64,000 nt of DNA, from contig NC_073387.1 of NCBI RefSeq assembly GCF_028641065.1, forward strand, positions 38,502,001 through 38,566,000, written 5' to 3'. The translations under genes were made by a program, and so were the position numbers. The notes below the pieces were generated by a model that made no database searches, was not told the origin of the DNA, and saw only the letters and a list, made by a program, of their open reading frames with translations. Numbering within the stretch: position 1 is the first letter of the stretch; each line of letters starts with the position of its first letter. This stretch comes from Leucoraja erinacea. Lineage: Eukaryota. Shown here one piece after another: positions 6,839 through 58,469 of the stretch.

Positions 6839-7069
6839 AGAAACGAGGATCTGCAGAGGCTGATTCATATTAAAAGAGACACTAAGTGCTGCAGTAACTC
6901 AGCGGGTCAGGCAGCATCCCTTGAGATCATGGATAGGTGATGTTTCAGGTTTGCATGCTCTTTCAGACACTCAGACAAGTCTGAAGAAGGGTTCCGACCA
7001 AAAATGTCATCCATCCATGATCTCCAGGGATGCTGCCTGAACCGTTAAATTACTCCAGCACAGTGTAAT
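6839..7069. mobile_element. Palindromic Penelope-terminus mini-element with TSD
   Basis: Head-to-head termini; TSD tatcaggtaatgt at 6826-6838 and 7070-7082. Confidence 0.75.
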
Positions 7070-7127
7070 TATCAGGTAATGTTTGAATTTCTTTACTGAG
7101 TTACTTTACAGCAACTATACCTAATGA

Positions 7128-7225
7128 TAAAGATAGACACAAAATACTGGAATAACTCAGCGGGACAGGCAGCATCTCTGGAGAGAAGGAATGGGTGACG
7201 TTTCGGGTCGAGACCCTTCTTCAGG
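7128..7225 (-). mobile_element. Penelope-like terminus with a consensus hammerhead motif on the minus strand (7197-7224)
   Basis: Reverse complement reads ctgaagaagggtctcgacccgaaacgtc. Confidence 0.75.
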
Positions 7226-7987
7226 TTTCTTTGAATGTCTGGAAAAGCATCCCAACCTGCAAAATTATGCTAAACTGTAGTAATGCAACAGCAATCATCG
7301 AGAAATGTTCGAGAGAGTACAGGCCATCTTCCAGATATGAACCAGTCCACTCTAGATTTTCTGCTCTCGATTCTGACACTTTGAACCCCAATAAAGGTGG
7401 CCAGACATCCCCAGCTCCTTGCATTCAGCCTATCTTTGATCACAATGCTTTTCTGATGGGTAGTATTAACTGTAGCCAGAAGTGGTCAATTTTATATTGA
7501 TTTGGATGTATCAAATGTGGTGACAAATATTCTTATCTCCGGGTGTTAAATGAGGGTTACGGAAGTAAAACAAATATTTTCTTAATTACTTCTTTAGGTT
7601 TGATTTGTTTATGACCCGCAGGCTCATAAATTCACAAGGGCTTTGAAATGTATTTCTTCAAATGTATTTATTTTTTGTCTCTGGCACCATTGCTGTCTGT
7701 ATGGAAAGATATTGTATGAAAAGAGACCAGTTGGTCCATTGCCACTCTGTTACCTCTTCCAGAGAGATATTTAATTAGCCCCACTCCCATGCTCTGTCCC
7801 TGGAGCCTTGATTTTATTTTCCTTTGGAGTAAACCTAAATTTCGTTCCGAGAGTAAATTAAATAGGAACATTGCTTTGTTCAGGAATGGGCCCTTGTATA
7901 CAGAGGTCAGGGACATGAGCTTTCTTTCTGCTGTTCAATGCTTTTTCATGAAGTAAACATTCAGAATAATGTACTGTTGTTTTGTAG

Positions 7988-8090
7988 AATTAAATCCTCA
8001 CTGGACAAAACATTAAAGGGTCAATATAATGTAACCATAAAAGCAAAGGATAAAGGAGATCCCAGCTTAGATGCAACAAATTACTTAGAT
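7988..8090 (+). CDS. CDHR2: CDHR2 exon: IKSSLDKTLKGQYNVTIKAKDKGDPSLDATNYLD
   Basis: tttgtag acceptor, gtaagt donor; LD...Y.V.I.A.D.G.P.L cadherin signature. Confidence 0.92.
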
Positions 8091-8719
8091 GTAAGTATTG
8101 TTAAGATGATTCATTTTACTATTTGTTTCTTTATATCAATATATGCTCTCACTGATGAACTAATGTACAGTGTTGCTCAGTTTGGTATAGACAGATAAAA
8201 CACGATGCAATATGATGCAGCAACATGATGAATCTCTTTCCTATCAGTTCTAGTTTATGAAGTGTGATGTTGATGGGCTGATTCTCACACAACATAGATA
8301 TTTCAGAATTGATTGTCTTGCTTTTCACTTTCCGCTTTGTAATGGGGTTGAAGCTGGGAATGAAGGAATATATAATGGGAGTTATGCATCAATCTGATGC
8401 CACTGTTTGAATTTTCACCCTTTATCACTTTTTGGATGATCTCATATTCTGCCTCCTAACTTCCAAAAAATGTATTCCTATTATACGGCTCATTGATATG
8501 TATTGGGTTGTTTCTCTTCAAAAGTCAAAACATACCTTTACAAACAAAGTAGTGTCTCTTGGGCAGTGGGCATCCTCTTTTAGCTCTGCCAGGGGAAGGT
8601 TACATGGAGGATACACACAGGTTCCTTTCCATACAGAATTAAAACACCCTTTATCTAATATCATTCAATACAGATACAGTCTATACAGATATCAAGCAAA
8701 ATTTCAGTCTTATTATGTA

Positions 8720-9480
8720 AAGAAGGCAAAGGAAAATTGGCTTTTCTTATCAATTTGTACAGATGCACCAAATTTTGATGCATCACTGCTTGGTATGGTA
8801 ATTGCTTTGCCCAAGACCACAAGAAATTGTAAATAGTTGTGAACACAGCCCAGTCCATCACACAAACCAGTCTCCCACTCCCATCAACTCCATCTACACA
8901 TCACACTGCCTTGGGAAAGCAGGCAAAGTAATCAAAGACCACTCACTGGTACACAAAATTGCTGGAGAAACTCAGCGGGTGCAGCAGCATCTATGGAGCG
9001 AAGGAAATAGGCGACGTTTCGGGCCGAAACGGCACCTATTTCCTTCGCTCCATAGATGCTGCTGCACCCGCTGAGTTTCTCCAGCAATTTTGTGTACCTT
9101 CGATTTTCCAGCATCTGCAGTTCCTTCTTGAACACAAAGGCCACTCACTCCTTGGTCATTCTCCTCTCCCGATGAGCAGAAGATTCAAAAGCTTAAAAGC
9201 AATTACTACCAAATTCAAGAGCAGCGGCTTCCCCGCTGTTATCAGACTCGTGAACAGACCTCTCATATGCTTAGGATGAATTCCCAATACTTCCTCGTGG
9301 CCCTTGCACTTTTTTAAAATCTGCACTTTCTCTTTCGTTCTAACATTATATTCTGCTCTCTGTATATTTTCCCTTTTGCACTACCTAATGAGCTCATGTT
9401 TGGTATGATTTGCCTGTATAGCAAACAAAACAACGTTCTTCACTGTATCTTAGTACATGTGACAATAATAAAACAATAGT
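8720..9480 (+). mobile_element. Rex1/Babar-like 3' end hosting a Penelope palindrome
   Basis: CITAWYGNC...LQEIVN..AQSIT..LP....PAVIRL; UTR ending gacaataataaa. Confidence 0.65.
8948..9134. mobile_element. Near-perfect 151-bp palindromic Penelope-terminus element (8948-9098) plus a tail
   Basis: Arms are reverse complements about cgtttcgggccgaaacg; TSD caaagaccactcact / caaaggccactcact. Confidence 0.8.
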
Positions 9481-11008: not shown

Positions 11009-11105
11009 GTAAGTTCCCAAACTGACTTACTTGTTACACTGCATCTGTAATGTATTATACTTTTTGCTTATGGTTGTTTAAGTATATTTTTAATCATTTT
11101 TACAG

Positions 11106-13175: not shown

Positions 13176-13179
13176 TAGA

Positions 13180-13910
13180 CAGACAGGAAGCAGCATGTGG
13201 GGCTGGGGAAGCACATCTCAGACCCGCAAACCCTCAGCATAGGAGCTCTGCAAGACTGCGTACTCTCCCTTCTTCTTTACTCTCTCTCTACACCAACAAT
13301 TGCACCTCCCCAGACTCCTCTGTCAAGCTTCCCAAGTTTGCTGACGACACAACCCTGATTGGACTGATCCAGGATGGGGAGGAATCTGCCAACAGACAGG
13401 AAGTGACACAGCTGGTGTCCTGGTGCCATCGCAACAACCTGCAGCTCAATGCTCTTAAGATAGTGGAATTGAGAGTAGACTTTAGGAGAGCTCCCCCTCC
13501 CCTCACCCCACTCACCATCAACAACATCACAGTCACATCTGTGCAGTATTTTAAGTTCCTGGGAACCATCATCTCCAAGGACCTTAAATGGGGGGGGGGG
13601 GGGGGTGTGGGGTGGGGCGGTACCATCGACTCCACAGTCAAAAAGGCACAACAGAGGATGTATATAGATCGAATGATGCGCTGCAGCCTCCGGATGTCAT
13701 GCTTGAGCCAAACCAGAACATGATGGAGAAGGTGAGGACAGACTCTATGATTGCAGTATAAAATTGGACCATCATTGCCTGTGGCAGATTGTGTTTTCTC
13801 AGTTGCCGTGGGAGGTACATCCTCTGTCGGGCCTTTTTGACAGTGGAGTCAACAGGTGGCCTCCCATTTAAGGTCCCTGGGGATGATGATTCCAAGGAAC
13901 TTAAATGACT
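13180..13910 (+). mobile_element. Rex1/Babar-like non-LTR retrotransposon RT fragment with an internal inversion
   Basis: KFADDTTLIGLI, WCHRNNLQLNALK.VE..VDFRR, FKFLGTIIS, KKAQQRMY; continuation on the minus strand (YTAIIESVLTFSI). Confidence 0.75.
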
Positions 13911-13954
13911 GCAAAATGCAGGGGGTCCAGCAGGGGGTTTGTGATAGCCAACAC

Positions 13955-14550: not shown

Positions 14551-14554
14551 ACAA

Positions 14555-15205: not shown

Positions 15206-16244
15206 GTCCTGGGCTATTGTTAGTGATGGAGAAGTGGCCAGACTGATGTTGGACAGCAAGGAGGGGGTGGGTAGTGGACAAGGGCCCAGTCTTTGCAGAC
15301 TGGAGTCAGGCTGGAAGTGGGTGTGAAGTGGTGATTAGGGAGGAGTTGGTGGGGGAGGGAAGGAGGGGGCACCGGAGTTATGTTTCTGTCTATTGAACCT
15401 GCAGTAGAACTCGTTCAGGTCATTGGTCAACTGACGATTGTCACTATGTAGAGTCACCATCACTATGACTCTGCTGTCCCGATTGTGAAAGAATAGAACA
15501 TTTTCCTTGTAAGAATTATGAAATGCAAATGTTTCTGAGGAGACATTAAAGTTCAAAGTTATTGGAAATTGGGAGTTTGCAGAAGACACAATTGCAGAAC
15601 ACTAGCTTCCATTGTACCAGTTATGTGCTGAGTTTCTTTCACAGGTGGTATGTGTGAAGAGCACAACTGTTAAAGATTTAAGTGATGAGTGCAACTTCTT
15701 CAGGTTTATGCAGCAGGTGATCTTGCTCCACAGTGTAGAGCAAAGTGACTCACTTGAATACTAGCCACAATGAAATGAGAGCATGTCCCAGATAGAACAA
15801 TTAAATTATTGCAGCAGCATAACAGAAAATGTTTATTTCTTGTATATATATATATGCATACATACACATTTTCTGTTATGCTGCTGCAAGTAAGAATTAT
15901 ATTTTCTGTTATGCTGCTGCAAGTACGAATTTATATATATTTATATACGTAAAACCAAACACACATAATAATAGTACAAAATGACAAAACCTAATCTTTT
16001 TGATTGGTTTTGACCAACTAAATCAAAATTTGCAGAAATTTCCAATGGTGATTGATTTATTCCAGGGCATGGTCAATTTATTGGTACATCTTCTAGCTGT
16101 ATGTTTATAAAAACTAATGCAAGATATTGCAGGAGCTTGATTTGGGCTTCTATAATTTGCATTTGAAATTTGTCAATCATTTGCATGGATTATGCTGATT
16201 TTAATGTAGGTGAATTGGTGAAAAAACTAACTGAGTAAAGAGGG

Positions 16245-16553
16245 TATACACAAAATGCTGGAGTAACTCAGCGAGACAGGCAGCATCTCTGGAGAGAAGG
16301 AATGGGTGATGTTTTGGGTTGAGACCCTTCTTCAAACAAAGGGTCTCGACCTGAAACATCACCTATTCCTTGTCTCCTGAGATGTTGAAGGAATGGGTGA
16401 CATTTCTGGTCGAGACCCTTTGTTTGAAGAAGGGTCTCGACCCGAAATGTCACCCATTCCCTCTCCAGAGATGCTGCCTGTCCCGCTGAGTTACTCCAGC
16501 ATTTTGTGTCTATCTTAGGTTTAAACCAGCATCTGCAATTCCTTTCTACACAT
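16245..16553. mobile_element. Nested-palindrome Penelope-terminus element with four hammerhead-like cores
   Basis: Cores in -,+,-,+ order; TSD tgagtaaagaggg (16232-16244) / tgagtagagaggg (16554-16566). Confidence 0.8.
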
Positions 16554-16606
16554 TGAGTAGAGAGGGCACTCACTTACAGTGACACACAGTGGCTTCCCAC
16601 ATAAGT

Positions 16607-18056: not shown

Positions 18057-18892
18057 ATGTCCCAAGGCACTCTGCATCCAATGTTGTCTGTGACATGTAT
18101 TAGTGCAGCAGCTGTTTTGCACACTGTACAAACAGCAAATGAATAAATGAACAGTTAATTTGTTTTCAGTCATGTCATTTTAGAAAAGAATGTTAGCTTG
18201 ACTGTTCAAAGAAATAATGGTGATCCTTCGAATAGCAAATCCGTGAATTTGCCAAGCAAGCAGATATTTACTTAATGTAATCTGTGACAGTGATATCCTG
18301 CTGTGTGATATTTTCAATACGCTGCTTAATTTTGTCACCCTAATGCTTTTTGAAAAATGTCTCTTTAACATCACAACAGATTTATTAAATTGTTTATTTA
18401 AATTGTATTAACTACGTGGCTGCGGAAAACAACTGGGAATATAAAAGCTGGAATAGATAATTTAGTCATTTGAGTCTGTAACGTTGTCAGTGCCAAACGT
18501 GGCGACACTTGTGTACTGCCTGGATGAAGTCTACTATACAATTTTACTGGGTTGTATGCAAAACAAAGTGTTTCGCTGTACCTGTGTACATGTGACAATA
18601 AAGTATGATTGAATCTTTGAATAATCCTTTGAGCCTATTCCATCATGTTCATGTGGGATCTAAATCCACAAACCCATTTTTTACCTCCTATAACACCATC
18701 ATTTGATTTTTAAAAATCACCTTTTTAGGCTGAAAAGCCTTCTTTGTGTAATACGTTTCTGTGAATCTATGTCTCAATTTCAATTATGCCAGAATAATTT
18801 TCACAGCTCAAGTTATATTTGAGATTACTGTTTCGTACCACCGAGTTGAATGTCAAATTTGATTGCTCTGATTGTGATTTTCTCCTTTTCAG

Positions 18893-21234: not shown

Positions 21235-21501
21235 GTAGCGTGGCACTGCAGATGCTGGTTTAAACCAAAGACAGACACAAAATGCTTGAGTTACTCAGCA
21301 GGACAGGCAGCATCTCTGAAGAGAAGGAAGGTGTAACATTTCTGGTCGAGACCCTTCTTCAATCTGAAGAAGGGTGGCGTTTTGGGTCGAAGAAGGGTCT
21401 TCAGTCTGAAGAAGGGTCTTGACCCGAAACATCATCCATTCCTTCTCTCCAGTGCTGCTGCCTGGACCACTGAGTTACTCCAGCATTTTGTGTCTATCTT
21501 T
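21235..21501. mobile_element. Palindromic Penelope-terminus element
   Basis: Inverted termini with several partial cores; TSD gaaaataattattt / gaaaataattgttt. Confidence 0.78.
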
Positions 21502-28454: not shown

Positions 28455-28583
28455 TCGAAAACATGGATCGGTGATGTTTCGGGTTGGGATCCTGCTTTAG
28501 ACTGGGTTAGGGGGTGGGTGTGCAGAAAGCTAGAAGGTAGGAGGAGTGGGACGAAGCTTGGCAAGCAATTGGTGGATACAGAT

Positions 28584-28614
<31 letters not shown>

Positions 28615-29325
28615 ATAAGCAAATAGTTGAACAAAGGCCAGAGATTAAATGACGTGTGATAATGAGGAGTTGCAAATTGTGAAGCCAGAGGAATGAATGT
28701 AGATGGAAAGGGAGGAGGAGGGGGGAAGTGGGTACAAGTCCAGGTGGGATGGGGCACAGGGAAGAGAGGAATGAATAAAAGAGTAAGGAAGGGGAGAGAA
28801 GAAGGGGGTTGGTTGGTAAGTTTACTAAATTTGGAGAATTCATTGTTCAAACCATTGGGTTGTAAGCTACCCAAGCGGAATATTGAGTGCTATTCCACCA
28901 GTTTGCCTGTGGCCTCACTCTGGCAATGGAGGAGACCTAAGCCAGGAAGATCAGTATGGGAATGGGAAGAGGAGTTAACATGATTAGTAACTGGGAGATC
29001 TGGTAGGCTTTAGCAAACCGAGTGCAGATTTTGGGTGAAACAGTCATCAAGTCTACTCTTGGTCTGGCCAATGTAAAGAAGGCCACATCAGATACAGTAG
29101 ATGAGATAAGAGGAGGTGCACATGAAAACTGTCTCACATAGATGGATGTGCGGGGAGCAGATATAAGGACAGTGTTATATCTCCTGTGGTTGCAGAGGAA
29201 TGTACCTGGGAAGGGTGTGCTTTTGGTGGGAAGGGATGATTGAACCAAGGAGTGGCGGAGGGAGTTGTATCTAAGGTAGGCAAAATGGTGTGGGGATGGG
29301 AAGATGTGACTGATGGTATCTCTAA
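28455..29325 (-). mobile_element. Decayed Penelope-like element (Cys-rich linker + GIY-YIG endonuclease + 3' UTR), probably Neptune-type
   Basis: Minus strand encodes FPGTFLCNHRR, then LIYCI*CGLLYIGQTKSRL, then LGSLQPNGLNNEFS, with frameshifts. Confidence 0.8.
28586..28614. repeat. Poly-G run (about 29 nt) in the Penelope 3' UTR
   Basis: Direct observation. Confidence 0.8.
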
Positions 29326-32300
29326 TATGCTCCTCCAAAATCAATCAAAGTTAAATTCATGTGATGCGCCTGAGTGAAAATGAAAGTAATGCAACAGCAC
29401 TCTCAATGACATGGCCAATGTCCAACCTCCACGTTGCTAACTCTTTGGAGGACTGTTACAACCAGGGAATGATCCATCAGCCTCAGACTTCTTTTTCTAC
29501 AGCTACAAATGGAAGGTGTTCAATACAGCACAGAGAGAATCTCATTAACACCACCAATCTCTCTATCTATCAACGTGGTAGACATTTTCAATGCTCAACA
29601 AATCTTGGCCAAAGTCCAAAGATGCTGATTGAGTGCTACACTTGCCTCTCATTCTGCTGCTTACAACGGACTGAAGAATGGACTCCCCTCTTCAGCTAAA
29701 TTACAACAGTGACAGTTGCACAATCACGGTAACTCATTATTTACTCCATGTTTACTCGAAGTGGCACTGCACTAAATAATACTGCAGTATTGAGGAACAT
29801 CCTTTCCCTTACACAGGAAAGTAACAGGCTATATCAACTTTGATGTGAGTGTCACCCACTTTCTGCTACTTCACTAACTGCAAGATGAACTCCAGGTCAT
29901 TCTGCTGTGTCAGCAGATAGGTTTCTTTCCGCACGGCATCTGCATCCCTGTGCCAACGTAACATTCATCTCATCTGATGTGAGCTTCCCTCCTGCACAAT
30001 TACTGTTGCAAGTATAGGAAGAAATGGCCACTAAACTCATGATGAGTTAACTGTACTCCTAGCAAGGTTGCCTCTTCAACATAGTGAAGATATTGAATAA
30101 AAACAAATAATAATCCACAAAGTGACCTGGTTTTATGTTTTGCCTGCTGTTGCCGTAAACTTTGCAACACACCACTTGACAGCAGAATGGATGAATATTG
30201 TAATCAAAACAATCTTCATATCAGAGCATTTTAAAGCAAATATAGACCAAAGCAATTCACGATGATATTGCAAACTATTTCACCTGTGCTGAGTTTATAG
30301 ACCATATTATTTTCTTTGTCCACCTGTATCTAGGTATTGCTGTCCCACTGGCCATCACTGACCTGGAAGGGAATTGGCTAGGGTTAGCATGGAAGGTCAA
30401 ACATGAACAGTTCTGATCCTCGATGGACTAGTTTGGAATTGCACCAATGGTAAGAGCAGCACAAGCCTAGACTCCACGGTTAAAGGATAATTGCAAAGGC
30501 ACTGCCAGATTACCAACATTGGGGTTGCAAATGTTATCCTGAAATAGAAACATTCTTTCTCTATGGAACCACTGGCACCCTGGAATCAGGCCATTAGAGG
30601 GCTTTGCAATCTGCTGGAGTTCAGATCACACTCCACTATCATAATATTGAGGATTGTGCCAGCCTCATGATGTGACAACTCCTCGTGCTTTGATGGCTGC
30701 AGTTTGAGCTTCACTGCAGCACACTGACTTTGAGTGACCTCCGCCTGTGCTGCTATGGAAACAAAAACTTCTGCCACTGACTGACGCACAATGGCTGAGT
30801 CTGCATGGAAATACCCATTATTAACCAGTGACACAGGATGAACTCTTAGATAACACACACTCAAACCACCGCCGCATGATATTTCTAACAGGTACTTTTG
30901 GCAGGCTGATGACAGTGCCCAGATCAGCATCTTCCGATCAGTTGCCCCATTGTATCACCATCTGAGTTCTTTGGAACAGCACTGTTGCCCTCCAGGGAGT
31001 TGATGCAACAGTGACCATAGTGGACAGTGGGCAGGCTACAACCCATAGTGCCAGTTTTCATACCACATGGAATTCTTGCACATGCAATACAATCTATATG
31101 TTGTGCACTGCCAAGATCTTCACAGTTAATGACAGAGCTCTGGGGAGTGTTGCGGAGTAGAGGGATCTTGGAGTGCAGGTGCATAGGTCCTAGAGAGTGG
31201 TGACACAGGTTGATAGAGTGTTCAAGAGGAATTGGAATTAGTGCTTTGGGATGACAAGTACAATGATCCAACACGCTTCTACTCTTCCTTGTTGGAGTCG
31301 ACCTCCTCAGCAGCAAAAGAGTACATGGAAAAATGAAGCTGGGCAAGTGGAACCACTGCAATTCTGCAAAGATAATGGTTCAATGGTGCTTTCATTGTCA
31401 CGTGTGTAAAATGCAAACATATAGTGCAATTCATTTCTTACAAACAATCCAGTAGAGTATTGCCATATCTAAGCATATCCCCAATTAGCAAATTGTACAG
31501 AATTAGTCTACTGAACCCGCGTGCAAGAGGTGCCTTGATTTGATGCCATTTATCACACCAAAATAAGGCAAAGGACATTGACATGGCGAGGGAACACACA
31601 CAATGGCGCAAGGGGAGAAGGGATTGAAAGACGAGAAATGTGAATATTTTCATCTTCAACCCTCCTTTGTTTGCGGGCTCAATGGAAGTAAAAGCCTCAT
31701 TCACCAAAAAGCAAGTCAGCCCCTGCTCCTTACAGTTTCCCTCAGCTTATTGCAAGAGACACCAATTCCTTTCTGTCTTCAGCAAGATAGGAGAGTGCTC
31801 ATTATTGTTGCTCAATGTGTTTGCAGGAGACAACTCTAATGGGGACGTGTGCATGGGTATGCATGGTGCAGCAGTGGTAAACATTGCAGTGTTGGCTTTG
31901 TCAGGTGTTTTCCTTTTGTGTAACAGCCTTGAACTTGACCAAGTGGAATGAGGAATGAAGTGAAGAGATTGCTACCTTCACGTGGTCCACCCTGTTTCGA
32001 CGAATGCAATCAACCTGGTGTGCACAAACAGAAGATCAAACAGAACACGTTGTCTTACAACTTTAGGCTGTGCATGCCATACGCAAGAAGAAGAAGGACA
32101 TTCATAGCTTTCCACAAATGGGACCAGACTGTTCATGAATCATTCCTAGTGTTTATCTTTTTGACCAACTTAGCTTTAATTCTGCAGGAGCAGCTGGGTT
32201 GGTCTTTTGATAAAGGTTCGCGTTAGAGGAGTAGAATCTGGTAATTCAACCCATCGAGTCTACTCCGCCATTCAATCACGGCTGATCTAACCCCATTTTC

Positions 32301-33514
32301 ATGCCTTCTCCCCATAACCCTTGACACTCGTTCTCATCAGGACCTTTGCGGTAAGTAAGCTCTCTTTGTTTTGCTCTCCATCTCATCAGAAGAATATTTA
32401 AAACCTTTTAGTGGGTCTGGAGGCTTGCTCCCTCCATGGATGTAGATACAATCAGTCATGGAATTACAAAGTTGCAGCAATGGTTTGAATGAGTGATCAG
32501 TTCTCCTTTCAGAACCGGCACACTGCTGACAATTAGATTAGAATCCATTTTGCAGTTGTATAATATTGTTAAAGGACACACAGCAAGAAGGAAATTGAGT
32601 TTAGAATTTACACTACAAAGTACTGTAATAACTCAGCGGGTCATGCAGCATCTCTGGAGGACATGGATGGATTATTTTGGGTAAGGACCCTTCTTCACAC
32701 TGTTCTTTCAAAGCTAAAATATGTAGACTCTCTTGCACGGGGAATGCAACAGGAAAAATGTGTGCAAATGTAACCAGGGCCCTCTGTGGATAGTGCATCC
32801 TCCATGATCTCTACTCACTTTGAGCATATGTATGACTTATTCCACTTTGAATGTCGCCTTGGACCTTGTACACAGTATAATATCAGATCCCCGGAACCTT
32901 GCCTTAACCTGCTGCTGACTGCCATGAGTTTTCGTATATTGATACATTTTTACCCCATTCTTTTTTCTTTCACTGAAGATCAGAACTGTAAATGTAGACA
33001 ATAAATGGTTGTCCACTCTTTTATGGGATTATTTGTGTTCTTTATGGTGCACATTTTTTCATTTTATTTTCTACACTTTTAGGTCCATTAGTTCACCTGT
33101 CCTGCATATCCGCCTCAAATTAATAGCAAACCTTTTTTTTTTATTCCTCTAGTACAATAATATGCTTCAAAAAAAGTTGCTTCACCAGGTCCACATTACT
33201 AATTCCTCACATCCAACAGAAATACCTTATTTAACATTATTCCAAATTAATCTGTCATATAACTCACATTCCTCCTGTAATTATAATTGTCTAACTGAAA
33301 TCTTTCCTCGTTAGTACCATTTAATATTGCTCGTTCTCCTTACAGCCAGACAGCCGTTTATTCTCTGATTATGTAGTCGATTTTCTTTACATTTATCATG
33401 GTTCAGTACATTAACATACTCTGTACTGGAGACCTTGACATTCCAGAACCTCTGTCTGGTTCTCTCACCAAGTAGTTATTAGCTTCCTCTCTTAATCCTA
33501 AGGTTGCATCTCTC

Positions 33515-33925
33515 CAGAACATGTTTGATGAAAAGCTTCAAACATAAGGAACAGAACCTCATATTTTGCTTGGCAGCTTACAACCCAGCAGGGCATGAAT
33601 GTTGGTTTCTTTAACTTCAAGTAACCATTGCTTTCCCTCTCTCTCCATCCCTACCCCACCGTAGTTCTCCGACTAATTCAGTCCTCCTGATTAATTTGGC
33701 TGATTGTATGGCCTACACCTACCCCTCGGCTGACAATGTAGCATTCATCATTTCCTTAATCGACTTTGGCTTTGATCTGTCATTTTCACACCTTACCCTA
33801 CCATATCTCTAGTCTCCCCCTCCCCTGACTCTCAGTTTGAAGAAGTGTCTCAACCCAAAATGTCACCCATTCCTTCTCTCCAGCGACGCTGCCTGTCCCA
33901 CTGAGTTATTCCAGCAATTTGTGTC
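33515..33925 (+). mobile_element. Penelope-like 3' end (GIY-YIG tail, UTR, degenerate hammerhead motif)
   Basis: EQNLIFCLAAYNP/LQPS.MNVGF-like tail, pyrimidine-rich UTR, then tttgaagaagtgtctcaacccaaaatgtc. Confidence 0.72.
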
Positions 33926-35487
33926 CATGGAGTTTTGTAGACAATAACCTACATTTACAATGCACATTTTATATAAAATATTTCACAATGGTTTTGATAG
34001 AAGATTTAAAACACCTGCAGTTGACTTTAATAATTATCAGTTAAATACCTTTAGAATTTAAATACCTGCAGTTGAATGATGGGGAGGCCAGCTGTGTGGA
34101 AGGAGGGAACAAAGACAGCAATAGTCTTCTTTTTCTGGAATTTTGCTGACCATATCTGTGAAATTCTAGCATACATATGTTGATATCTTGTGATTAAATA
34201 CAATACTGTGGCCCCTCATCCCTGGATCCATGCATATGATTTCAAAGCAAACTGGAGATCAAATTCTGACCCATATTTCATATTAAAAATATTAGCAATA
34301 TTTTAATTACATCATTATCTTTTATTTCTGTTAAACAGCACTTGATTTTTTTTTGTAATAAATATGTTTAACATGTTTGACATCATTATGAAATTGGAGT
34401 GGGAGATTGAGGAAAAAGGGCATTATAAAGTGACTGAGTTCACCATCTTCTGCTTTCATATTGTTATTTTTCTGTAATCGAGTTAGGAGATCAGCAACAA
34501 TATAATCAGGGTATACGAAATAGGCATGTTAGATTTTTATGTTTCTCTCAGTTAATATAGTATTTGTAAATGCCAATATAATTCCTCGCAACTGTGCTAG
34601 TCAGGAAATAGACAGGCCATCTCAGTTACGATGCTTTAAATAAAAATCATTCTTCCATGTTTGCCTCAGTTGAGATAATTATGCAGAGTATTTCAGCATT
34701 TCGCAGTGGATTGCAACCGTATTTTAACTGTCTGATGCATGCTGCAAGATGGCCGTTTATACTTATTGCCAAGTACGATGTCCATGCTGACATTAGCTTA
34801 TTTTCTTGTGGTCTGCAGCTGCTGAATGTTAGCTCAAATGCACATTGCTTGACTAGGTGCAAGTGCAGTCTTAAAAAAGAAATATTTGTTGTTTTTGTTT
34901 GGTTGAAAGTACTTAAAAGTAAAATGTGTTTGTAGAACTCTTTCAGAAGGTACTGTCAAATGTGTTTCCCGAGTCTTGGAGAAACAGAAATCATAGCATC
35001 AGTTAGTGTGAAAAAGGGTGCCAACCCAAAATGTCATCTATCCATGTTCTCCAGGGATGCTGCACGGGTTACACCAGCACTTTGTGTCTTTTTTTTGGTA
35101 AAGCAGCATCTGCTGTTCCTTGTTTCTACAAAGCATTGGTCACTGTGTTCAGATGCTGGGCTTAACATGGAGTCCTGCAAAAAAGGCCAGTCGATTCATT
35201 GTGCTGAAGACTCAACCTCTCCAATGATACAGCAGTCAGAGTTGATGTGTTTTTCTTAAGTAATTACATTACTTACAAAAGTAGTCAATAAAATTAAGGT
35301 AATATGATGTATGTTACATTACGTTAATATTAATTAATGCAGCAAAGTCATCAAGAAAGGTGATGATATCTGTGTTCATATGGAGGTCACTATTTTGAAT
35401 GACATTGTTGAAGGTTAGCATGCAAATGGGGAATAGGAAGAAGCCGGTATAGATCTATGCAGTACATCAGAGGGAACAGTACGGGAT

Positions 35488-35712
35488 ATGCAGCATCTCT
35501 GGAGTGAAGGAATGGGTGGCATTTCTGGTCGAGACCATTCTTCATACTGATGAAGGGTCTCGATCCGAAACGTCACCTGCAGTCTGAAGAAGGGTCCCGA
35601 CCCGAAACGTCACCCATTCTTTCTCTCCAGAGATGCTGCCTGTTCCGCTGAGTTACTCCAGCATTATGTGTCTATCTTCAGTTTAAACTAGCATCTGTAG
35701 TTCCTTCCTACA
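35488..35712. mobile_element. Palindromic Penelope-terminus element containing tandem hammerhead motifs
   Basis: One inverted core followed by two direct cores (35547-35574, 35584-35611). Confidence 0.8.
35547..35611 (+). ncRNA. Tandem minimal hammerhead ribozyme motifs (activity untested)
   Basis: CTGATGA-a-GGGTCtcGATCC-GAAAC-GTC and CTGAAGA-a-GGGTCccGACCC-GAAAC-GTC; all core nucleotides present. Confidence 0.65.
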
Positions 35713-36914
35713 CAGAGGCAGCAGAACAAATCATGTTATTGATGCTTCCCAGCCAGCAGGGCAGTAGAGCTGCATATCAGGAGAATTGCATAAACTTTTA
35801 TCTCATTAACAGCTGGCTGGAATTGATGACAATTTCCATTGGTGTACAAATGTTAAAGTGAAAGTGAACATTTGTTGGAAGAATGTGTCTGTCAACAGTA
35901 TAACATTGGAATGTACTTTTGAAAAAAATACAATCAAAATATAATAAAAGTTAAAAAGAACACCTGTTCCATTTATCCTGTTACAGATTAAATAGCTTTA
36001 GTTCATCTAACCCATTCTAACACACACCATCCACAGAGTTGCAAAAAAAAGACCCATTTAAAGCATAACAAAAATTATGAAAAATTCCTTCTGTGATCCC
36101 TGAAGGCAGTGTAAGCTATAGTGTGAATAGTTACCAATTTTAAGCTTTGACAATACTAAAGTAATACTTCATTGAGATATTCTTTCCTTGCACAATGTTC
36201 ATTTCTTAAGCCAAGATCTTAATCATTGTGAAAGAAATTGGATCTTATGTGAGAAGACCTCATTTTGCACAATCCGCATTGTGTACCTTTTACTGTTAAT
36301 TTAAGCACTCAAAATAATGAATTACTGGCACTATATTTCTGATTGTTGTGACTGATGGTAACACACAAATGGTAGGAATTTTATACTGAATATTCTGAAT
36401 CACTGTTCATTTTAAACAAGTGAGCTTAAAGGAATCAATATTAAAATCAGTTGACTTTATCTAATAACACTCTTTCAAAAGATGAAGCCCTGAAACTATA
36501 AATCATCCCTGCAATTTGAATAAAAACCTTGAGGAGATGCTTTATATACAATTCCAAAATGCCTTATCACCTCTCAGCATGGATGGCAGCTCAAACCAAG
36601 TAAGAAAACAAACACAATCAGATTACAGCATTAGCTGCACTTTTGTCTTTGATATTCAAGCTGTGAGATATAAATGATATATAAAGAGTAACCTCATTAT
36701 CGCCCCAAACTATATTATGTAGGGTTCAAAGCACATCAACCAGTTGCTTCGATTCCCCAACATATCCTTAATACTATTAAAGCAAAACTACGCTATTACA
36801 CATTTGAAGGATGAACAGTATAGATCAAGAGTCAAGAGTCAAGAGTCAATTTAATTGTCATTTGGACCCCTGGAGGTCCAAACGAAATGCCGTTCCAAAC
36901 GAAATAGATAACAT

Positions 36915-37105
36915 AAAATGCTAGAGTAATGCAGCAGGACAGGCAGGCAGCAGCTCTGGAGAGAAGGAATGGCTGAAGAAGGGTCTAGACCCGAAACATC
37001 ACCCATTACTTCTCTCCAGAGATGCTGCCTGTCTCGCTAAATTACTCCAGCATTTTGTGTCTATCTTCGGTGTAAACCAGCATCTGCAGTTCGTTCCTAC
37101 ACAAT
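36915..37105. mobile_element. Palindromic Penelope-terminus element
   Basis: Exact 11-bp TSD atagataacat (36904-36914, 37106-37116); core ctgaagaagggtctagacccgaaacatc. Confidence 0.78.
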
Positions 37106-37437: not shown

Positions 37438-37686
37438 TAAGAAGGAACTGCAGATGCTGGAAAATCAAAGGTAGACAAAAATTGCTGTAGAAACTCAGCG
37501 GGTGAGGCAGCATCTATGGAGCGAAGGAAATAGGCAACGTTTTGGGTCGAGACCCTTCTTCAGACTGATGTGAGGGTGGGAGGGGGGCGGGAAGAAGAAA
37601 GGAAGCGGCGGAGACAGTGGGCTGAGGGAGAGCTGAGAAGGGGAGGAGAAAGCAGGGACTACCTGAATTTAGAGAAGTCAATGTTG
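37438..37686 (-). mobile_element. Penelope-like 3' end
   Basis: Same subfamily as 6121-6520 (terminus, core, purine-rich UTR on +). Confidence 0.75.
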
Positions 37687-46010: not shown

Positions 46011-47876
46011 GCAATTAATTCTGCTTCTATCTATGGAAAATTAATAACATTAGGCTTTAGTGCACAGCGAGGTTCTCAGCAACTATCTGTCCACTTTTCA
46101 TAATTTTGCATTTCATTAATTGTTTATATGGTCTGACTTTTACAAAAACATACCAAAAAAAATGCCCGGATGCTTTTAGCACTATGATTTATTTTTCTTA
46201 TTTGCATAGGAATCACTGAATGTTAACGGGATTAGTTAACCAGTGCATCATTACAAGTAGACCGTTTCAACTATTACTGCAGTTGTGAAAAAATAATTAT
46301 GCAAGCTGCATTTCGTCAATGGACTTCAGAAAATGACACAAACATATTTTATCACTGTGCAAATGTGGACACAGTGTTAAGAGGAGGTTTGAATGCATTT
46401 ATGATTTCTAAACCCTGTTTACTTGTGCATCACTTAACCACAGAACACATGTATAAACCTACTGCTAATAACTATGGAACCCTGGTAAATCTCGCTCCTA
46501 GGCAGCAAACACTTTCTGCTCCGAGGGGAAACTGCAGTTCCAATTGAACACCAGATTTACAATATGAATGTGTGAACAAAAGGTGAGAAAAACAAATGTA
46601 GCAATTGCTGACAAAGGAAGGTCCACCTTCAAGAACATTGTTAAAAAGGCTGTTCTTGATTGGCTAAGATGTTCGAAGAGGCAATGTACAGCCTTGTAGT
46701 ATATTCATATCTATAATGCCAAATTTTACAAAGTTACCAATTATACTAAACTATTTTACTAAACTACTTCAACAAGATTTAAAACATTTGGAACCAATCC
46801 TATTTAAAATAGAATGGAACATATAATTTGATATTAATATAACTCAAGGGTGAAAAATATTTTTTTCATCATATCCATAAATCACACTGCCATAAAGGAT
46901 AGTTGTTTCATCATATCCATTACACTTTCATAAAATAACAAAGAATGGAAGAGATTGACATTTTTTTCACCTTCCATCAGTGAGGAATGTGGAGGAGTCA
47001 CTGTGGTGGATGTTTATATTAAAATGTACTTTATGTGTCTTGTGACTTTTAATTATATGATGATTGTATGGCAAATCAAATTCCTCGTATGTTGCAAAAC
47101 ATCCTTGACTAATAAAGTATGATTATGAATATGATTATGATTATAAATGTTGACGATTCATTACCTGATTACTGAATAGAATCATGAAGGCCTTAAGGTT
47201 TTTATTGTATTTAGTATTTTTAAAAAAAGTATATATTTCAGTAGACTAATATAACTGGATATGAAATCTGTTTGGTGTTTTTAAAAGATATTCCATTCAT
47301 AATGTCTAATTAAGAAAATGAAGTGGATATGAGATGGATTAAAGTTAACAAAGGGTCAGAAATAATTTCTTGGTATATTAATTTATCGGTTATCATAGTA
47401 GACAACCAACAACAAAAGGTTACTGTTGAAGCTTCACATAAGCATTCTTTAACATATTTTGTATCTCTGTTAATAGCAGATCTACTTTTCAGTAACAATG
47501 TGTATTTATATAGTGCCTTTAACAGTAAGAACGCCCTAAGGCTCCCAAAATTATATTAAGAAAGACTACACTTGTTTTGTATCAAAGTAGTATTGTTCAT
47601 TCGGTATCCATTTCTAGTGTCAAAGAAAATCTAAGCCTAAAAGTAGAATATTTTGGCTACTCAAAAAAAATAATACTCACGAGTTCAACTTGAAAAAAAG
47701 AAATTGTTCAGGGCAAAGTTCATCAATTAAGCAATGCATTACAAAAGGGAGAAAGAGGTTTCAGAGTATGAGAGCTGAAGGAAGACCAAAGTCCATTTTG
47801 ATTAAACAAAGGGCTGGCAAAAATAAAGTTAACCCTTACAGGCCTCTCAAAGTGATATATTGGAATGTGATGTTTA

Positions 47877-47990
47877 TGATGCTGGAAAATCGAAGATAGA
47901 CAAAAATGCTGGAGAAACTCAGCGCGTGAGGCAGCATCTATGGAGCAAAGGAAATAGGCAATGTTTTAGGTCGAGACCCTTCTTCAGACT
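47877..47990 (-). mobile_element. Penelope-like terminus fragment
   Basis: gatgctggaaaatcgaag...gtcgagacccttcttcagact. Confidence 0.7.
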
Positions 47991-50389: not shown

Positions 50390-51722
50390 GCTTTATAGGA
50401 CTTGGGTCCGGCAGCATTTGGAGTATTACATGCAGTTCTGGTCATCCCATTCCAGGAAGGATGTGAAAGCTTTGGAAACGATACAGAGAAGGTTTACCAG
50501 AATGATTCGTAGATTAGCGGCATTAGATCTTAAACCCATTCTCCTGCCTTCTCCCCATAACTTCTGACACCTGTACTAATCAAACATCTATCTATCTCTG
50601 CCTTAAAAATATCCACTGACTTGGCCTCCACAGCCTTCTGTGGAAAATAATTCCACAGATTCACCAGCCTGACTAAAGAAATCTCTCCTTATCTCCTTCC
50701 TAAAAGAACATCCTTTAATTATGAGGCTGTGACCTCTAGTCCTAGACATTCCCACTAGTGGAACCATCCTCTCCACAGCCACTATATCCAAACCTTTCAC
50801 TATGTATCAATGAGGTCCCCCCTCATTCATCTAAACTCTACCGAGTACAGACCCAGTGCCGACAAACGCTCATCATAGGTGAACCTACTCAGTCCTGGGA
50901 TCATTCTTGTAAACCTCCTCTAGACCTTCTCCAGAGCTAGTGCATCCTTCCTCAGATATGGTGCCCAAAAATTGCTCAAAATATTCCAAATGCGGCCTTA
51001 CCAGCACCTTATAGAGCCTTAGCATTACATCCCTGTTTTTGTATACAAGCCCTCTTGAAATCAATGCTAGCCTTGAGTTTGCTTTCTTTACTACTAATTC
51101 AATTTGCAGATTAACTTTTTGGGAATCCTGCACCAGCACTTTCAAGTCTGTTGCATCTCCGATTTCTGTATTCTCTCCACATTTAGAAATTAGTCTACAC
51201 CTTTATTCCTACTACCAAAATGCATGACTTCATACTTTACCACACTATATTCCATTTGCCACTTCTCTGCCCACTCTCCCAACCTGTCCAAGACCTTTTG
51301 CAGAGTCCCTGTTTTCTCTACACTACCTGTCCTCTCACCTATTTTTATATCACAAACTTGCCCACAAAGCCTTCAATCCCCTCGCCCAAATCATTAATAT
51401 ACGACGTGAAGAGTGGCCCCAGCACTTACCCTTGCGGAACTCCGCTGGTCACTGGCAGCCAACCAGAAAAAGCCCCCTTCCTTGCCACACTTTGTCTTCT
51501 GTCATCCAGCCAAACTACTCTCCATGCTAGTATCTGCCCTTTGATACCGTGGGCTCTAATCTTCCCTTGTAGCCTCATGTGTGGCACCTTATGAAAGGCT
51601 TTCTGAAAATCTAACTACATCTACTGTCTCTCCATTGTCTGTCCTGCTATTTACTTCTTCAAAAAATTCCAGCAAATTTGTCATACAAGATCTCCCCTTC
51701 ACAAAGCTATGGTGACTTCAGC
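50390..51722 (-). mobile_element. CR1 LINE fragments (+ 50390-50500; - 50530-51722 RT region)
   Basis: VRPHLEY, KVPH, VTSGVPQG motifs with frameshifts. Confidence 0.85.
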
Positions 51723-53679: not shown

Positions 53680-54950
53680 CAGGAGGTATATCTGCTCAGC
53701 TTTCACCATAATACCAAGTAAACCGATCCCTGAACTTCTGGATCTTGCCTTGGGGCCTCTACCTGCAACTGGTTTCTGGACTTCCTGACCGGCAGACCTC
53801 AGTCAGTTAGAATTGGTTATACCATTTCTTCCTTCCTGACCCGCAACATTGATGTCCCTCAGAGTTATGTGCTCACTCACTTACTCTACTCCCTGTACAC
53901 CCACGACTGTCTAGTTAGGTACGTCATTAACTCAACCTTTAAATTTGCCAGTGTTGTTTCACTGTTGACAGCTGGATTAACAACAGTGATGAGACAAAGT
54001 ATAGGAAAGAGATTAAGAACCTTGCGTAATGGTCAAGGACAACACCCTATCCCTTAATAGCAGCAATTTGAAATAGTTGTTTGCGTAGGAAGGAACTGCA
54101 GAAGCTGGTTTACATCGAAGATAGACACAATATACTGGAGTAACTCAGCGGCTCAGACAGCATCTCTGGAGAAAAGGAATAGGTGACATTGTGGTTTGAG
54201 ACCCTTCTTCAGACTTCTTCAGAGTTGGTTGGTGACCAAATGACAGGGGGAACATAACTTGGTGTTATCAACAAAGCAGCATTAGTAGAGATGGTCAATG
54301 GCTTCATATCACCTGGTCCCTTCACATTAGTGTGATGATTAATAAAGAGAACCGAATCGCTACTTTCTTAGGCATCTGAGAAGAGTTGGCAGGTCTATGC
54401 GGATTCTCTTGAACCTCTTCAGATGAGCTATAGAAAGGATTCTGATGGGATGTATCTCCAGCTGTACAACAACTACTATTCTCTTGACCATCTAAACCTG
54501 CAGAGAGTGGTGAATATAGCCCAATCGATCATACTCTCATCCGCTCCATCCAGTTAATCTTCAGGAAGACCGATGTATTGTCGAGGATGTCTATTTTCTG
54601 GCAATTTCCTGACATCTGGGAGAAGACACAGGAAGTTCAGATGTTCAGATGTCCAGGCTTAAAAACTGTTTTTCCCCCCACTATTCTTAAACCCGTGAAC
54701 TAATCACCTCTTTCACAATCCCTTCCTGGAGATGCTGCCACGTATTCTTAACTCCAACTCATTCAGTCATTTTGGTTATTGCACTTTAATTAATTTGCTC
54801 TACTTGGGATTACACTGCAATCTTGCACCATTCTGCTGTTTTGCACTCTTTTATTCTATTTATGCTATTAATCATTACTGTATGTGACCCAGTAAATCTG
54901 TCAGCTTTATGTAAACAAGACTATTTTATGGTGCAGATGACAATAAACTC
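53680..54950 (+). mobile_element. Degenerate Rex1/Babar-like fragment
   Basis: [38 protein letters not shown]. Confidence 0.7.
54083..54215 (-). mobile_element. Penelope-like terminus inserted in a Rex1-like fragment
   Basis: aggaactgcag...gagacccttcttcagact. Confidence 0.7.
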
Positions 54951-55057
54951 ATCTCAATGTGATTTTGAATTGATAACGTCATCCCCATAGTTAAGACCCA
55001 ATGGAGAAATATTGCTTTAGAATAAGTTTGTGAGAAGATAAATATTTTTTTCCTTAA

Positions 55058-55282
55058 AGACACAAAATGCTGGAGTAACTCAACGGGACATGCAGCATCT
55101 CTGGAGAGAAGGAATGGGTGACACTTTTGGATGAGCCCTTTCTTCAGACTGGTCTGAAGAAGGGTCTCGTCTTGGTGTCACCCATTCCTTCTCTCCAGAG
55201 AAGTTGCCTGTCCCGCTGAGTTGCTCCAGCTTTTTGTGTCTCTCTTCAGCTTAAACCAGCATCTACAGTTCTTTCCTACACA
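55058..55282. mobile_element. Palindromic Penelope-terminus element
   Basis: Inverted arms about ttcagactggtctgaag. Confidence 0.75.
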
Positions 55283-55767
55283 TTTATTTTCTAAGTTTGC
55301 TTCCAATGTTGTTGATCCTGTGCCTCAGATTGTGATGAACATTACTATTCCATAAACCTAATAAAATACTAACATTAAAGTAAAATTTATAATTGCTAGA
55401 AGACTTTCTTATTTATTGTTAATTATTTTGGAATTAAGAATATATTTTGTTGAACACCTAACCTTACATCACATTTTCACCTAGGATTGACATTTGGAGA
55501 ATGGAGTGAAAACATTCAGAATCTGAACTTAATTTCACTTCAAATTAAAGGAAATGTTCTGTTAATTATAAAGCACTCTAGCTTTAAAACAAATACATCC
55601 TTTATTTGCATATTAAGTAGTTCTGATGAAAGTCCAGTAGATATATATTTTTTCTCTTTCTTATAGTTGACTTTTAATCTTTTTACTTCAGATTATATGG
55701 TTGACTTTAAGCAAATAGACGTCTCTAAATATGTAAACAGTAAATTTGCTAATGTTTAATCTTGTAT

Positions 55768-56430
55768 TGTTTATTCTTCTTGCGTACTTCTTGCGAATGG
55801 CGTGCACAGCCTAAAGACATCCCGGCCAGGACAGCATCAGTTACTGGGTGGATGGCTTTGATGCCACCGGGGAAAAGCCTCAGTGGGCAGTCATTCACGA
55901 TGTGTGGGATGGTCTGGTCTGGATGTCTGCAGTCGCTAGCAGGGCTGTCTGTCATCCCCCACTAATGCAGGTGATGGGCTGTTCTTGCATGGATGGGTGC
56001 GGATCCTGTTCAGGGTTAACCATTGCTTGCGATGGAGGTCAAAACCCAGTGGTTTCACTGTGGCGTCTGTGATGACCTCTCCGTTGTTGGTGTTGGCATC
56101 TTTCCAGGCTCTGCGCCACTAAGTCGTGGAGTCAAAGTCTTCCAGGGATTTAACGGAAGACCAGAAAGGTTTGTGGGCCTTCAGGCGCATGTTGGGCAGT
56201 TTGTTCAAGTCAGCATGGATGGGAAGTTCAGGGTTAGCCTCGATGGTGCGCCAATCTTTTAACATCCTCTCCCTCCTGTGTATGCTGGGAGGGGCAATAT
56301 GTGAGAGGACAGGGAGCCACTGCAAAGGTGTTGACTTAAACATCCCTGTGATGACCCGCATTGCAGATTTAAGGATAATGTCAACTTGTTTGGTGTGGCA
56401 GCTATTAGCCCAAGCTGTTGAGCAAAACTT
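55768..56430 (-). mobile_element. Non-LTR retrotransposon 3' fragment, I-group, Vingi/Ingi-like
   Basis: HTKQVD..L.SAMRVITG..KSTPLQWLPVLSHIAPPSI.R, zinc-knuckle-like DC.HPDQTIPHIVNDCP, and a cgcaagaagaa tail. A short matching tail lies at 32057-32097. Confidence 0.6.
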
Positions 56431-58299
56431 GGTTGTTTGTTTATTACAGTCACACCATATAGTAGAGCTATGCACGTGCAGAGAACATCTGTTAGATCAA
56501 GGTGTTATCAGCAAGGATATTTTACACACTAGTCTGATGACAATATTTATAAAATGGTTGCTCTCAAAATTTTTTAACCACCATATTTTCCCATTAAGGT
56601 CAAGCATTACCAGAATAAATTCTATTGCAGGTAGACTTTTCAGGAAACGTGTTACATGATTGCAAATGAATGCACAGTAATTTATCAGAATTTTTTATAT
56701 AAACATACTCACATAAGCAAATGTTGCAATAATCCAGCCCTGTCACAGTCCATGTGAGTTCTTCTCTGTGTAACAGTAATATATCTAAACTGGAATACAA
56801 AATGCTCACAGGTTGAAAAAATCTTCCCATCCAAATAATAGAGGTGGTTGCACTTCAGCTCTACATAATACATACAAGGAATCAATTTGCCTGTCAAATA
56901 AATATTGTTGGTTAGCAATAATTGCATCTGCACTTTACACTGGATTCAATATTATTTCAATGCAAGGTTTAGAATGAAAAAAATAATTTCCTTAAATGCA
57001 TTTTTTTTACAGCTTGTTCTCTATATGGTTTGACATTAACTGAAACAATAATTAAGTTGGAACATTTACAGATTCACAAAATAATTCTCAATATAGTGTA
57101 CGGAGCAGCAATCTACAATTGCCTACTCTCATATTTGCAGAGGTGTTAATATAGTTTACTGAAAAAAACTGGAACTGAATGAGGCAAAGTCAGAATACCC
57201 CCAAACATTATTAATATTTATATTCAAGAAGACTATTATTCAATTTTGCCGATAAATAAATATTCATTAGACTGGGACTAGTCAATTTATAATTGGTTCT
57301 TGTAATACTTTTAAAAATGGCTAAGATGAAAAGAATTGAAGTGCAATACACATATTACATCTTGAATAAAATGAAAATCAAGAATGTTATTTTGTTTCTA
57401 AAATAAAGCAAAAACATTGCTATGGTAACAATGGAGCACAGGATAATTCCTTATGCTAGTCAGAACCTTTTGCTGAATAACTGACTCATGACACATTACC
57501 TAACATAATTACAATGCTTGTGATTACAATAAGCAAGGCTATAAGTAAAAGTAATCCTGGAAATCACAGAGGTATTCTATCTAGATGACTTGTAGCTGTT
57601 ATTTTATAACATTTTATTTTATATTTTTGTGAATGCCTAAGGAACGTAAAAGTGTTCAAGAATAATCTTTGCTTAATCATACTTTGTTTTTATTCATTTG
57701 GCGTTACATCACAAATTCCTAGCTTACTCAAAATTTGAAATAAACGGTAAGTGCAATTTCTTTTGATAATACAATTAGGATTTAAATTAGCAGTAACTAA
57801 GTGCACAAATTAACACAATTTCCTGTCAGCTTTGTGCAGTTTTGTTTATGTTCTTCCCTTAAATATAAAAAAATATTATTTGATACAGTGGCTTGTACAA
57901 TTACACTAAATTTATAGCAGTGGTCACCATGACAATGGAATATATGTAGGAGCACACATATATTCTTCTTTTATTATAGTTTACAATTTTTCAAAGGAAA
58001 AACATATTTCTGTTTAAGGAGCCAGAAACACTCTGCTGGTGTTGGGTTTCGACCTGAAATGTCATCTATCCCTCAGACAGGTGCTGTCAGACCTGCTGAG
58101 TAGCTCCAACAGTTTGTTTCTTTTTGTTCCAGATTCCAGCATTAGCAGCTTCTTGTGTCTCTAGCTTTCTCTTTAAGGATACCGTATCTTATTGAATTAG
58201 CGTGGTCAGGGATTTAAGCCATTTTACACCTTGTTTGCATCCACAATGTCAAAATGGAGCTGAGCCCCCTCTGACCATGAACAAAAGCATACTTTCATA

Positions 58300-58469
58300 T
58301 GTAGAAATAAAGAACTGCAGATGCTGGTTAACACACAAAAGGACAGACAGTGCTGGAGTAACTCAGCAGGTCAGGCAGTCTCTCTGGTGAACATGGATAG
58401 GTGATGTTTCTGGTCAAGATCCTTCTTCTATCCATTCTCTCCGGAGATGTTGCCTGAGATGCTGAGTTA
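58300..58469. mobile_element. Palindromic Penelope-terminus element, interrupted; resumes at 59862
   Basis: The consensus gctgagttactccagc is split at TTA by the MITE and CR1. Confidence 0.65.

Follow-up and report, generated by a model that had tools for sequence, protein, structure and literature searches.

Minimal inverted end-repeat insertions of Penelope-like elements in a skate genome, probably formed from two short cDNAs joined head to head

Endonuclease-bearing (EN+) Penelope-like elements insert as a unit in which a pseudo-long terminal repeat (pseudo-LTR, pLTR) adjoins an inverted, 5'-truncated copy and carries a tail of 30-40 bp on one side only, as two studies describe (PMC3846280, PMC8557442). 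How the end repeats are rebuilt, and how inverted copies with a one-sided tail arise, is still debated (PMC2377424, PMC3846280, PMC11167929). We analysed a 64,000-nt stretch of Leucoraja erinacea DNA (NC_073387.1, 38,502,001-38,566,000, forward strand; the window), in which a sequence-only reading had reported at least eight small fold-back inserts. All eight are present as inverted repeats, with refined lengths of 170-309 bp. They resemble the EN+ units in their head-to-head repeat, junction palindrome and one-sided tail, in target-site duplications (TSDs) of about 10 bp or more, and in the GIY-YIG sequence that lies upstream of the repeat; unlike those units, they lack an open reading frame (ORF), are very dense and have a sharp 5' edge at a hammerhead-ribozyme core (PMC3846280, PMC8557442). 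Very likely they are the shortest form of the Penelope inverted-pLTR insertion and by-products of integration, which agrees with the first of two earlier proposals, extreme truncation-inversion products. As elements they are mostly ordinary, an ORF-less minimal form of a known general pattern. Probably, Penelope end repeats from two short complementary DNAs (cDNAs) were joined head to head. A literature search whose coverage stopped short of repeat libraries, most subscription journals and the supplementary alignments of PMC4209133 returned no paper that describes such inserts in cartilaginous fishes or treats twin priming in Penelope.

Positions within the repeat are counted from the C of the core CUGAnGA as +1, with cleavage predicted after +28. 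In a tree of the arms, subfamilies B and C have 99% support and A is the unresolved rest; the short arms 35478 and 36906 were omitted from the tree or half-filled. The palindromes and their TSDs are as follows.

6839..7066, minus strand: palindrome, subfamily C; tail-bearing arm 6839-6968 (-), short arm 6977-7066 (+)
6823-6838 and 7067-7082: TSD of the 6839 palindrome, 16 bp, 1 mismatch
8948..9134, plus strand: palindrome, subfamily B; short arm 8948-9022 (-), centre 9023, tail-bearing arm 9024-9134 (+)
8933-8947 and 9135-9149: TSD of the 8948 palindrome, 15 bp, 1 mismatch
16245..16553, plus strand: doubled palindrome, subfamily A; antisense +91..-1, sense +7..+55, antisense +40..+7, sense -1..+131
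16232-16244 and 16554-16566: TSD of the 16245 palindrome, 13 bp, 1 mismatch
21235..21501, minus strand: palindrome, subfamily A; tail-bearing arm 21235-21362 (-), short arm 21402-21501 (+)
Centre of the 21235 palindrome: 40-nt inner piece holding two fold-backs
21221-21234 and 21502-21515: TSD of the 21235 palindrome, 14 bp, 1 mismatch
About 35478..35714, plus strand: palindrome, subfamily A; short arm 35478-35546 (-), tail-bearing arm 35581-35714 (+); TSD decayed
35547-35577: inner sense copy of the motif in the 35478 palindrome
36915..37105, plus strand: palindrome, subfamily A; short arm 36915-36972 (-) from +31, tail-bearing arm 36973-37105 (+) from +1
36904-36914 and 37106-37116: TSD of the 36915 palindrome, 11 bp, exact
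55058..55283, plus strand: palindrome, subfamily A; short arm 55058-55151 (-), tail-bearing arm 55152-55283 (+); TSD decayed
58300..58469, minus strand: palindrome, subfamily C; tail-bearing arm 58300-58428 (-) from +3, short arm 58429-58469 (+) from +32

The motif pattern, with up to 3 mismatches allowed, occurs at 19 places in the window against 0.06 expected from shuffles; a model trained on the copies matches 27 places, by construction. TSDs of 11-16 bp with 0-1 mismatch surround five of the eight palindromes, as had been noticed for several of them, and score 10-13; none of 300 random position pairs scored 9 or more. The palindromes at 35478 and 55058 have decayed candidates only. At 58300 a TSD was sought and none was found; its short, right arm is interrupted by a different repeat that occupies the window from 58469 onward. 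The inserts had been described as two copies of one terminus. Their head-to-head order holds, but the arms are unequal: the long arm runs to about +131, the five short arms that are uncut or TSD-bounded run to +84..+96, and the tail of 30-40 nt is confined to one arm of each palindrome. Extra inner pieces are present in three inserts (16245, 21235 and 35478). The two arms of an insert belong to the same subfamily and are 75-96% identical to each other, and the eight junctions in the window are mutually different.

On sequence grounds, the arm is the end repeat of Penelope-like elements. The same terminus stands 3' of GIY-YIG C-terminal coding remnants at four loci, in agreement with the Penelope-like origin that had been proposed; three were known from the earlier reading (one of them placed at 33515, here 33525), and 28455-29344 is an addition.

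6121..6540, minus strand: 5'-truncated Penelope-like element, subfamily B; GIY-YIG C-terminal remnant, 3' untranslated region (UTR), core start 6212, tail-less end
28455..29344, minus strand: 5'-truncated Penelope-like element with a C-like end; decayed Cys linker, GIY-YIG with YIG motif, 3' UTR, core start 28500
33525..33930, plus strand: 5'-truncated Penelope-like element, subfamily A; frameshifted GIY-YIG tail, 3' UTR, core start 33837, tail-less end
37438..37685, minus strand: 5'-truncated Penelope-like element, subfamily B; last GIY-YIG codons, 3' UTR, core start 37563, tail

The elements at 33525 and 37438 were placed via DNA alignment only, tblastn having missed both; the GIY-YIG remnants that it reported are 1691-1933, 6262-6537 and 28794-29317. 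Two little skate proteins with a YIG motif, one of which carries a CX4CxxC linker, match the 6121 remnant (P0001) at 71-75% identity over their C-termini; its identity to a 902-aa protein with reverse transcriptase (RT) and GIY-YIG domains is 43%. The remnant at 28827-29317 aligns along the entire GIY-YIG domain. A Pfam search did not detect GIY-YIG in the window remnants, and tblastn found no RT of this family in the window. A Cys-rich CX2-5CxxC linker is present in the homologs P0003 and P0007 and decayed in the window remnant 29120-29317. Because the Cys linker is a mark of Neptune and Nematis (PMC8557442), and Neptune is known from vertebrates, this skate or ray family likely belongs to the Neptune clade.

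Each subfamily contains palindromes together with solo or body-bearing copies. The solo termini number seven, which with the eight palindromes sets the density in 64 kb.

7128..7224, minus strand: solo terminus, tail-less, intact core; starts at +1
47872..47989, minus strand: solo terminus, subfamily B; starts at -1/-2; TSD 47858-47871 and 47990-48003 (14 bp, 1 mismatch)
54082..54215, minus strand: tail-bearing solo terminus; starts at -2, and a short duplicate of its opening bases stands just before it
1650..1756, minus strand: solo terminus with inner deletion; TSD 1639-1649 and 1757-1767 (11 bp, 1 mismatch)
4510..4598, plus strand: solo terminus, subfamily B variant, stem II with a U-G pair and UUCG loop; starts at +3
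32612..32702, minus strand: solo terminus, subfamily C; starts at -3
35005..35130, plus strand: tail-bearing solo terminus, subfamily C; starts at -2

The solo terminus at 1650-1756 sits in opposite orientation inside the older GIY-YIG remnant 1691-1933. Tail-less ends at +89 to +97 are also found in five copies that have no inverted arm (7128, 4510, 32612, 6121 and 33833), so that end arises without fold-back. The value of the collection lies in the data: so many minimal insertions in one genome make steps of the Penelope cycle testable by counting, in that the 5' edge informs on the RNA start, the centre base tells twin priming and snap-back apart, and the sharing of odd junctions gauges the rate of re-movement.

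The minimal type I hammerheads reported from Penelope-like elements of metazoans (Cervera and De la Pena 2014, PMC4209133) share with the skate motif the CUGAnGA core, an extra base between 9 and 10.1, G10.1-C11.1, GAAA, a palindromic 15.2-16.2 and the absence of loop 3. In 23 skate arms the majority letters are correct at every core position (CUGAnGA / GAAA / UH), with the extra base before helix II and the palindromic 15.2-16.2. The earlier reading had recognised the minimal motif and its extra base; as a precedent for the extra base, the hammerheads of PMC4209133 are closer than that of chrysanthemum chlorotic mottle viroid (CChMVd). The core is fully intact in 6 of the 23 arms, and the rest have decayed, mostly at CpG. 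Helix II has 4 bp with a tetraloop (89.8% of cells paired); helix I has only 2 bp (70.4% paired), as in the D. virilis variant, against 4-5 bp in the published minimal hammerheads, and a longer helix I was not found in folds of the body-bearing copies. Save for this short helix, the motif appears to fit the published minimal type I hammerhead, its activity being a prediction. Two-sided changes in helix II amount to only three cells, counts that 114 and 227 of 500 shuffles reach; the covariation score is reached in 9 of 500 shuffles, and relatedness alone can give such a score. Common helix II variants in public contigs lie in the loop or yield a U-G pair. An Rfam scan of the window, the check that had been proposed, gave no hammerhead family among 21 matches with E up to 5, only generic hairpin families below threshold.

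Computed folds do not bear out the suggestion that the inserts can be read as ribozymes from both strands. Single arms favour a non-hammerhead fold by 3-11 kcal/mol, and in five of the six palindromes scored the long hairpin leaves stem II unformed on both strands (pair probability 0.000) and lies 14-58 kcal/mol below the hammerhead-constrained fold, 36915 being the exception. PMC4209133 describes motif pairs in Schistosoma that lie 100-700 bp apart on opposite strands; unlike these, the skate opposite-strand pairs, for which activity is likewise a prediction, abut directly. We infer that the ribozyme is carried along as a passenger, its motif marking where the repeat starts. Two intact cores stand in tandem, 37 nt apart, at 35547-35620 (+), a candidate dimeric fold, though inside a long hairpin. 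Outside the skate, the motif pattern had no match in prokaryote genomes; in viral contigs one scan gave none and another gave two short matches, of which the one inspected was a chance match with unlike flanks. Three metagenome contigs, used only in the alignment, carry a related motif with different flanks and represent another repeat family (L001 339-370, L002 501-532, L003 1-38); their helix II is the same, with 4 bp, helix I has 3-4 bp, and the palindromic helix III is longer.

We then compared 5' edges, read by eye from one arm per locus, at 19 loci (8 palindromes, 7 solos and 4 body-bearing copies); six old fragments whose 5' edge cannot be mapped (2304, 4820, 22077, 23565, 44977 and 58036) stand outside this set. 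At 14 of the 19 loci the edge falls at -3..+3 of the core, a clustering for which even truncation across 100-400 nt would give P of 6e-13 to 3e-21, and at none does it fall within 3 nt of the predicted cleavage site. All seven solos share the edge of the palindromes. Among the eight short arms, the start falls at -3..0 in five, at +18 in one and at +31/+32 in two. The earlier placement of the symmetry axis at or beside the motif is upheld by this edge, but only five of the eight palindromes carry the motif on both strands: in 36915 and 58300 no more than one strand has it, and 8948, whose axis lies at +18 in stem II / GAAA, has lost the 5' half of the motif from both arms.

The same edge is seen in public contigs of four runs aligned to 37380-37760, the subfamily B reference from the 37438 element (the three large runs contributed 107,000-112,000 contigs each); one of the four runs may be the source of the window, and the species are related rather than independent. 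Summed depth, which is not copy number, falls 15-, 13- and 7-fold from +13 to -8 in the three large runs, and loose contig ends, whose flanks are mixed, accumulate at -1 and -2. Because solos and public contigs share it, the edge is general and distinct from the cleavage site. Two other accounts of the edge were considered. Splicing is not favoured, as the loose ends hold no common upstream exon (agreement 0.32-0.33), though a tiny exon could still fit. A downstream promoter element at the GUC site, matching 5 of 8 letters of the motif in PMC2377424, was dropped because it is confounded with the core.

These edges bear directly on the proposal that the ribozyme sets the breakpoint, with cleavage making an RNA end at which copying stops and folds back. 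It could draw on the short arms of 36915 and 58300, which start at +31 and +32, and on the inner pieces of 21235 and 35478, which end there, near the cut after +28. None of the 19 long or solo arms starts at the cut, however, and most arms keep the whole core upstream of it, which implies an uncleaved template. Helix I has just its 2 bp, monomers prefer the other fold by the 3-11 kcal/mol given above, and the loose-end peaks near 37529-37530 in public contigs reflect a subfamily indel, not truncation. For the anole Penelope element, too, hammerhead cleavage is dispensable in vitro (PMC11167929). We consider a cleavage-determined breakpoint very improbable.

Both arms of a skate insert copy the same 90 nt. 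In twin priming of L1, by comparison, a second primer on the other target strand yields an inverted 5' part, and L1 inverts without duplicating. For the skate inserts, two cDNAs would be primed on opposite strands of the cut target and joined by their 3' ends, a twin-cDNA scheme that we hold to be slightly favoured. Its nearest biochemical parallel is the anole Poseidon element PAc (Frangieh et al. 2024, PMC11167929), whose protein nicks and extends both target strands and, on an uncleaved RNA template, begins to reverse-transcribe at two internal sites, one on either side of the tail and 100-130 nt beyond the hammerhead; PAc belongs to another clade, and palindromic products are not described in the available portion of that paper. 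The long and the short arm would be the cDNAs from the two start sites, and the tail-less ends at +89 to +97 fit the two sites mapped for the anole element. Each flank, read 5' to 3', runs into an antisense arm, as expected from priming on both nicked strands. Priming in the 5' end repeat of the RNA would give run-off cDNAs of ~95 and ~133 nt, comparable to retroviral strong-stop DNA, and their common 5' edge would be the 5' end of the element RNA, probably a capped start at -2/-1. Joining may take place by annealing or template switching at native micro-palindromes, of which there is one of 4 bp + 1 nt at position 0 and, in the B variant, one of 6 bp + 1 nt at +18; brief snap-backs could leave the inner pieces.

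A capped RNA start as the cause of the 5' edge seems to us evenly poised. The edge would fit the initiator consensus, with its A at -2. The first loose letter at -2..0 is C on the cDNA strand in four of the five rows listed, where composition predicts A or T, a hint that it is a cap-copied G. The Penelope promoter is located in the pLTR.

Self-priming is the other way to a fold-back: one strand would fold at the palindrome at the 5' edge of the repeat and copy itself back. Self-priming on an antisense template has been proposed for rotifer Penelope elements, with palindromes at inverted junctions (PMC3846280). In the skate, a perfect 4-bp micro-palindrome occurs only once in the 400-nt copy at 6121, at position 0, the 8948 insert folds at the native palindrome of the B variant, and the inner pieces of 21235 and 35478 resemble short snap-backs, all of which suits this account. 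It leaves unexplained, however, why all seven solos have the same 5' edge without an inverted arm and why the second arm stops 30-40 nt early, at a site used by unfolded copies. The exact position-0 junction is found in only two of the eight palindromes. Moreover, at 8948, 21235 and 35478 (3 of 3) the centre base is native to the tail-less arm, unlike the expectation for snap-back of a tail-bearing cDNA alone. Self-priming snap-back is therefore, in our judgement, unlikely.

Several observations weigh against the joining of two cDNAs from a capped RNA start. The centre-base argument has n=3, with P = 0.125 if both bases are equally likely. The cap hint is drawn from consensus letters of the five rows listed, with an agreement of about 0.32, in related species, and the RNA start is a prediction. 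A pyrimidine tract and AG upstream of the core resemble a splice acceptor, as at the D. virilis motif. Part of the depth fall is due to bodies of other subfamilies that do not match the B reference. The two-start-site biochemistry comes from a Poseidon element, not Neptune. Finally, the short-arm starts of 36915 and 58300 and the ends of the two inner pieces lie 2-3 nt beyond the predicted cut, so that some templates may have been cleaved.

The second earlier proposal was a self-propagating, non-autonomous class, whether SINE (short interspersed nuclear element)-, MITE (miniature inverted-repeat transposable element)- or retrozyme-like, in which the palindromes would be transcribed and moved in trans as units to give most copies. 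MITEs have matching terminal inverted repeats, a uniform size and a short TSD of fixed length; the skate inserts, unlike them, have ends that differ by 30-40 nt, sizes of 170-309 bp and TSDs of 11-16 bp. Animal non-LTR retrozymes are likewise non-coding, bear a type I hammerhead and are related to Penelope pLTRs; their units measure 50-970 bp and occur also in a chondrichthyan (bioRxiv 10.64898/2026.07.22.740005; PMC7761336). Retrozymes, however, are head-to-tail arrays that give circular RNA, whereas the skate inserts are head to head, TSD-bounded and non-arrayed, and no head-to-tail hammerhead array was found in the window. In public contigs, head-to-tail joints of 138 nt occur in 1-4 contigs per run among the joints listed, a listing that probably lacks short contigs at a perfect hairpin, and the terminus outnumbers the B body 7- to 15-fold in summed depth; both could speak for propagation, as does the statement of PMC3846280 that pLTRs suffice for mobilisation in trans. 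The eight different junctions, the three subfamilies, each with its solo or coding-remnant copies, and a hairpin fold that buries the motif speak against it. Propagation as a fixed unit is decidedly unlikely. The 138-nt joints run from 37568 to 37431, are rare, were seen in three runs and are possible seeds of retrozyme-like arrays.

A limited form of re-movement survives in one insert. The two halves of 16245 share one odd inner junction and a C3-to-T change in the core, and their inner pieces are unequal (49 and 34 nt); it is likely a second-generation copy, the retrotransposed transcript of an older palindrome. Two cDNAs made on such a transcript, with different stops, would give this structure directly, whereas a double snap-back would need a later deletion. 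The insert was refolded during copying rather than faithfully copied. A position-0 junction would recur unaided in any case. Remobilisation of hairpins probably occurs at times (one of eight here), without propagation of a fixed unit. More speculatively, and in our estimate rather unlikely, a dimeric RT-endonuclease would prime two strong-stop-like cDNAs at the capped 5' end of its RNA and fuse them into hairpins that keep the promoter and both priming sites and are therefore transcribed and moved again; in skates and rays these would make up a SINE-like class with copies numbering on the order of 100,000. Such a class would consist of two ribozyme-bearing ends only, would be a likely source of hairpin small RNAs, and would form a fossil record of missing steps of the Penelope cycle.

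The remaining features of the window belong to other genes and repeats. A single open frame of 413 aa at 40588-41829 (-) has a GRIN_C domain (E 4.8e-40) and represents a GPRIN-family host gene. An exon-sized frame at 7962-8102 (+) gives a weak cadherin-domain match (E 2e-4, below the cut-off), and a cadherin-type gene probably harbours several of the inserts in its introns. At 15806-15893 there is an AT-rich hairpin with 27-bp arms and a (TA)n loop, sub-threshold against several microRNA models and unrelated to the Penelope terminus. Long inverted repeats at 13542-13913 and 50390-51017, inside RT remnants like those of long interspersed nuclear elements (LINEs), are probably 5' inversions of other retroelements. 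Long LINE RT frames with little decay are present at 17017-18099 (-) and 59048-59494 (+).

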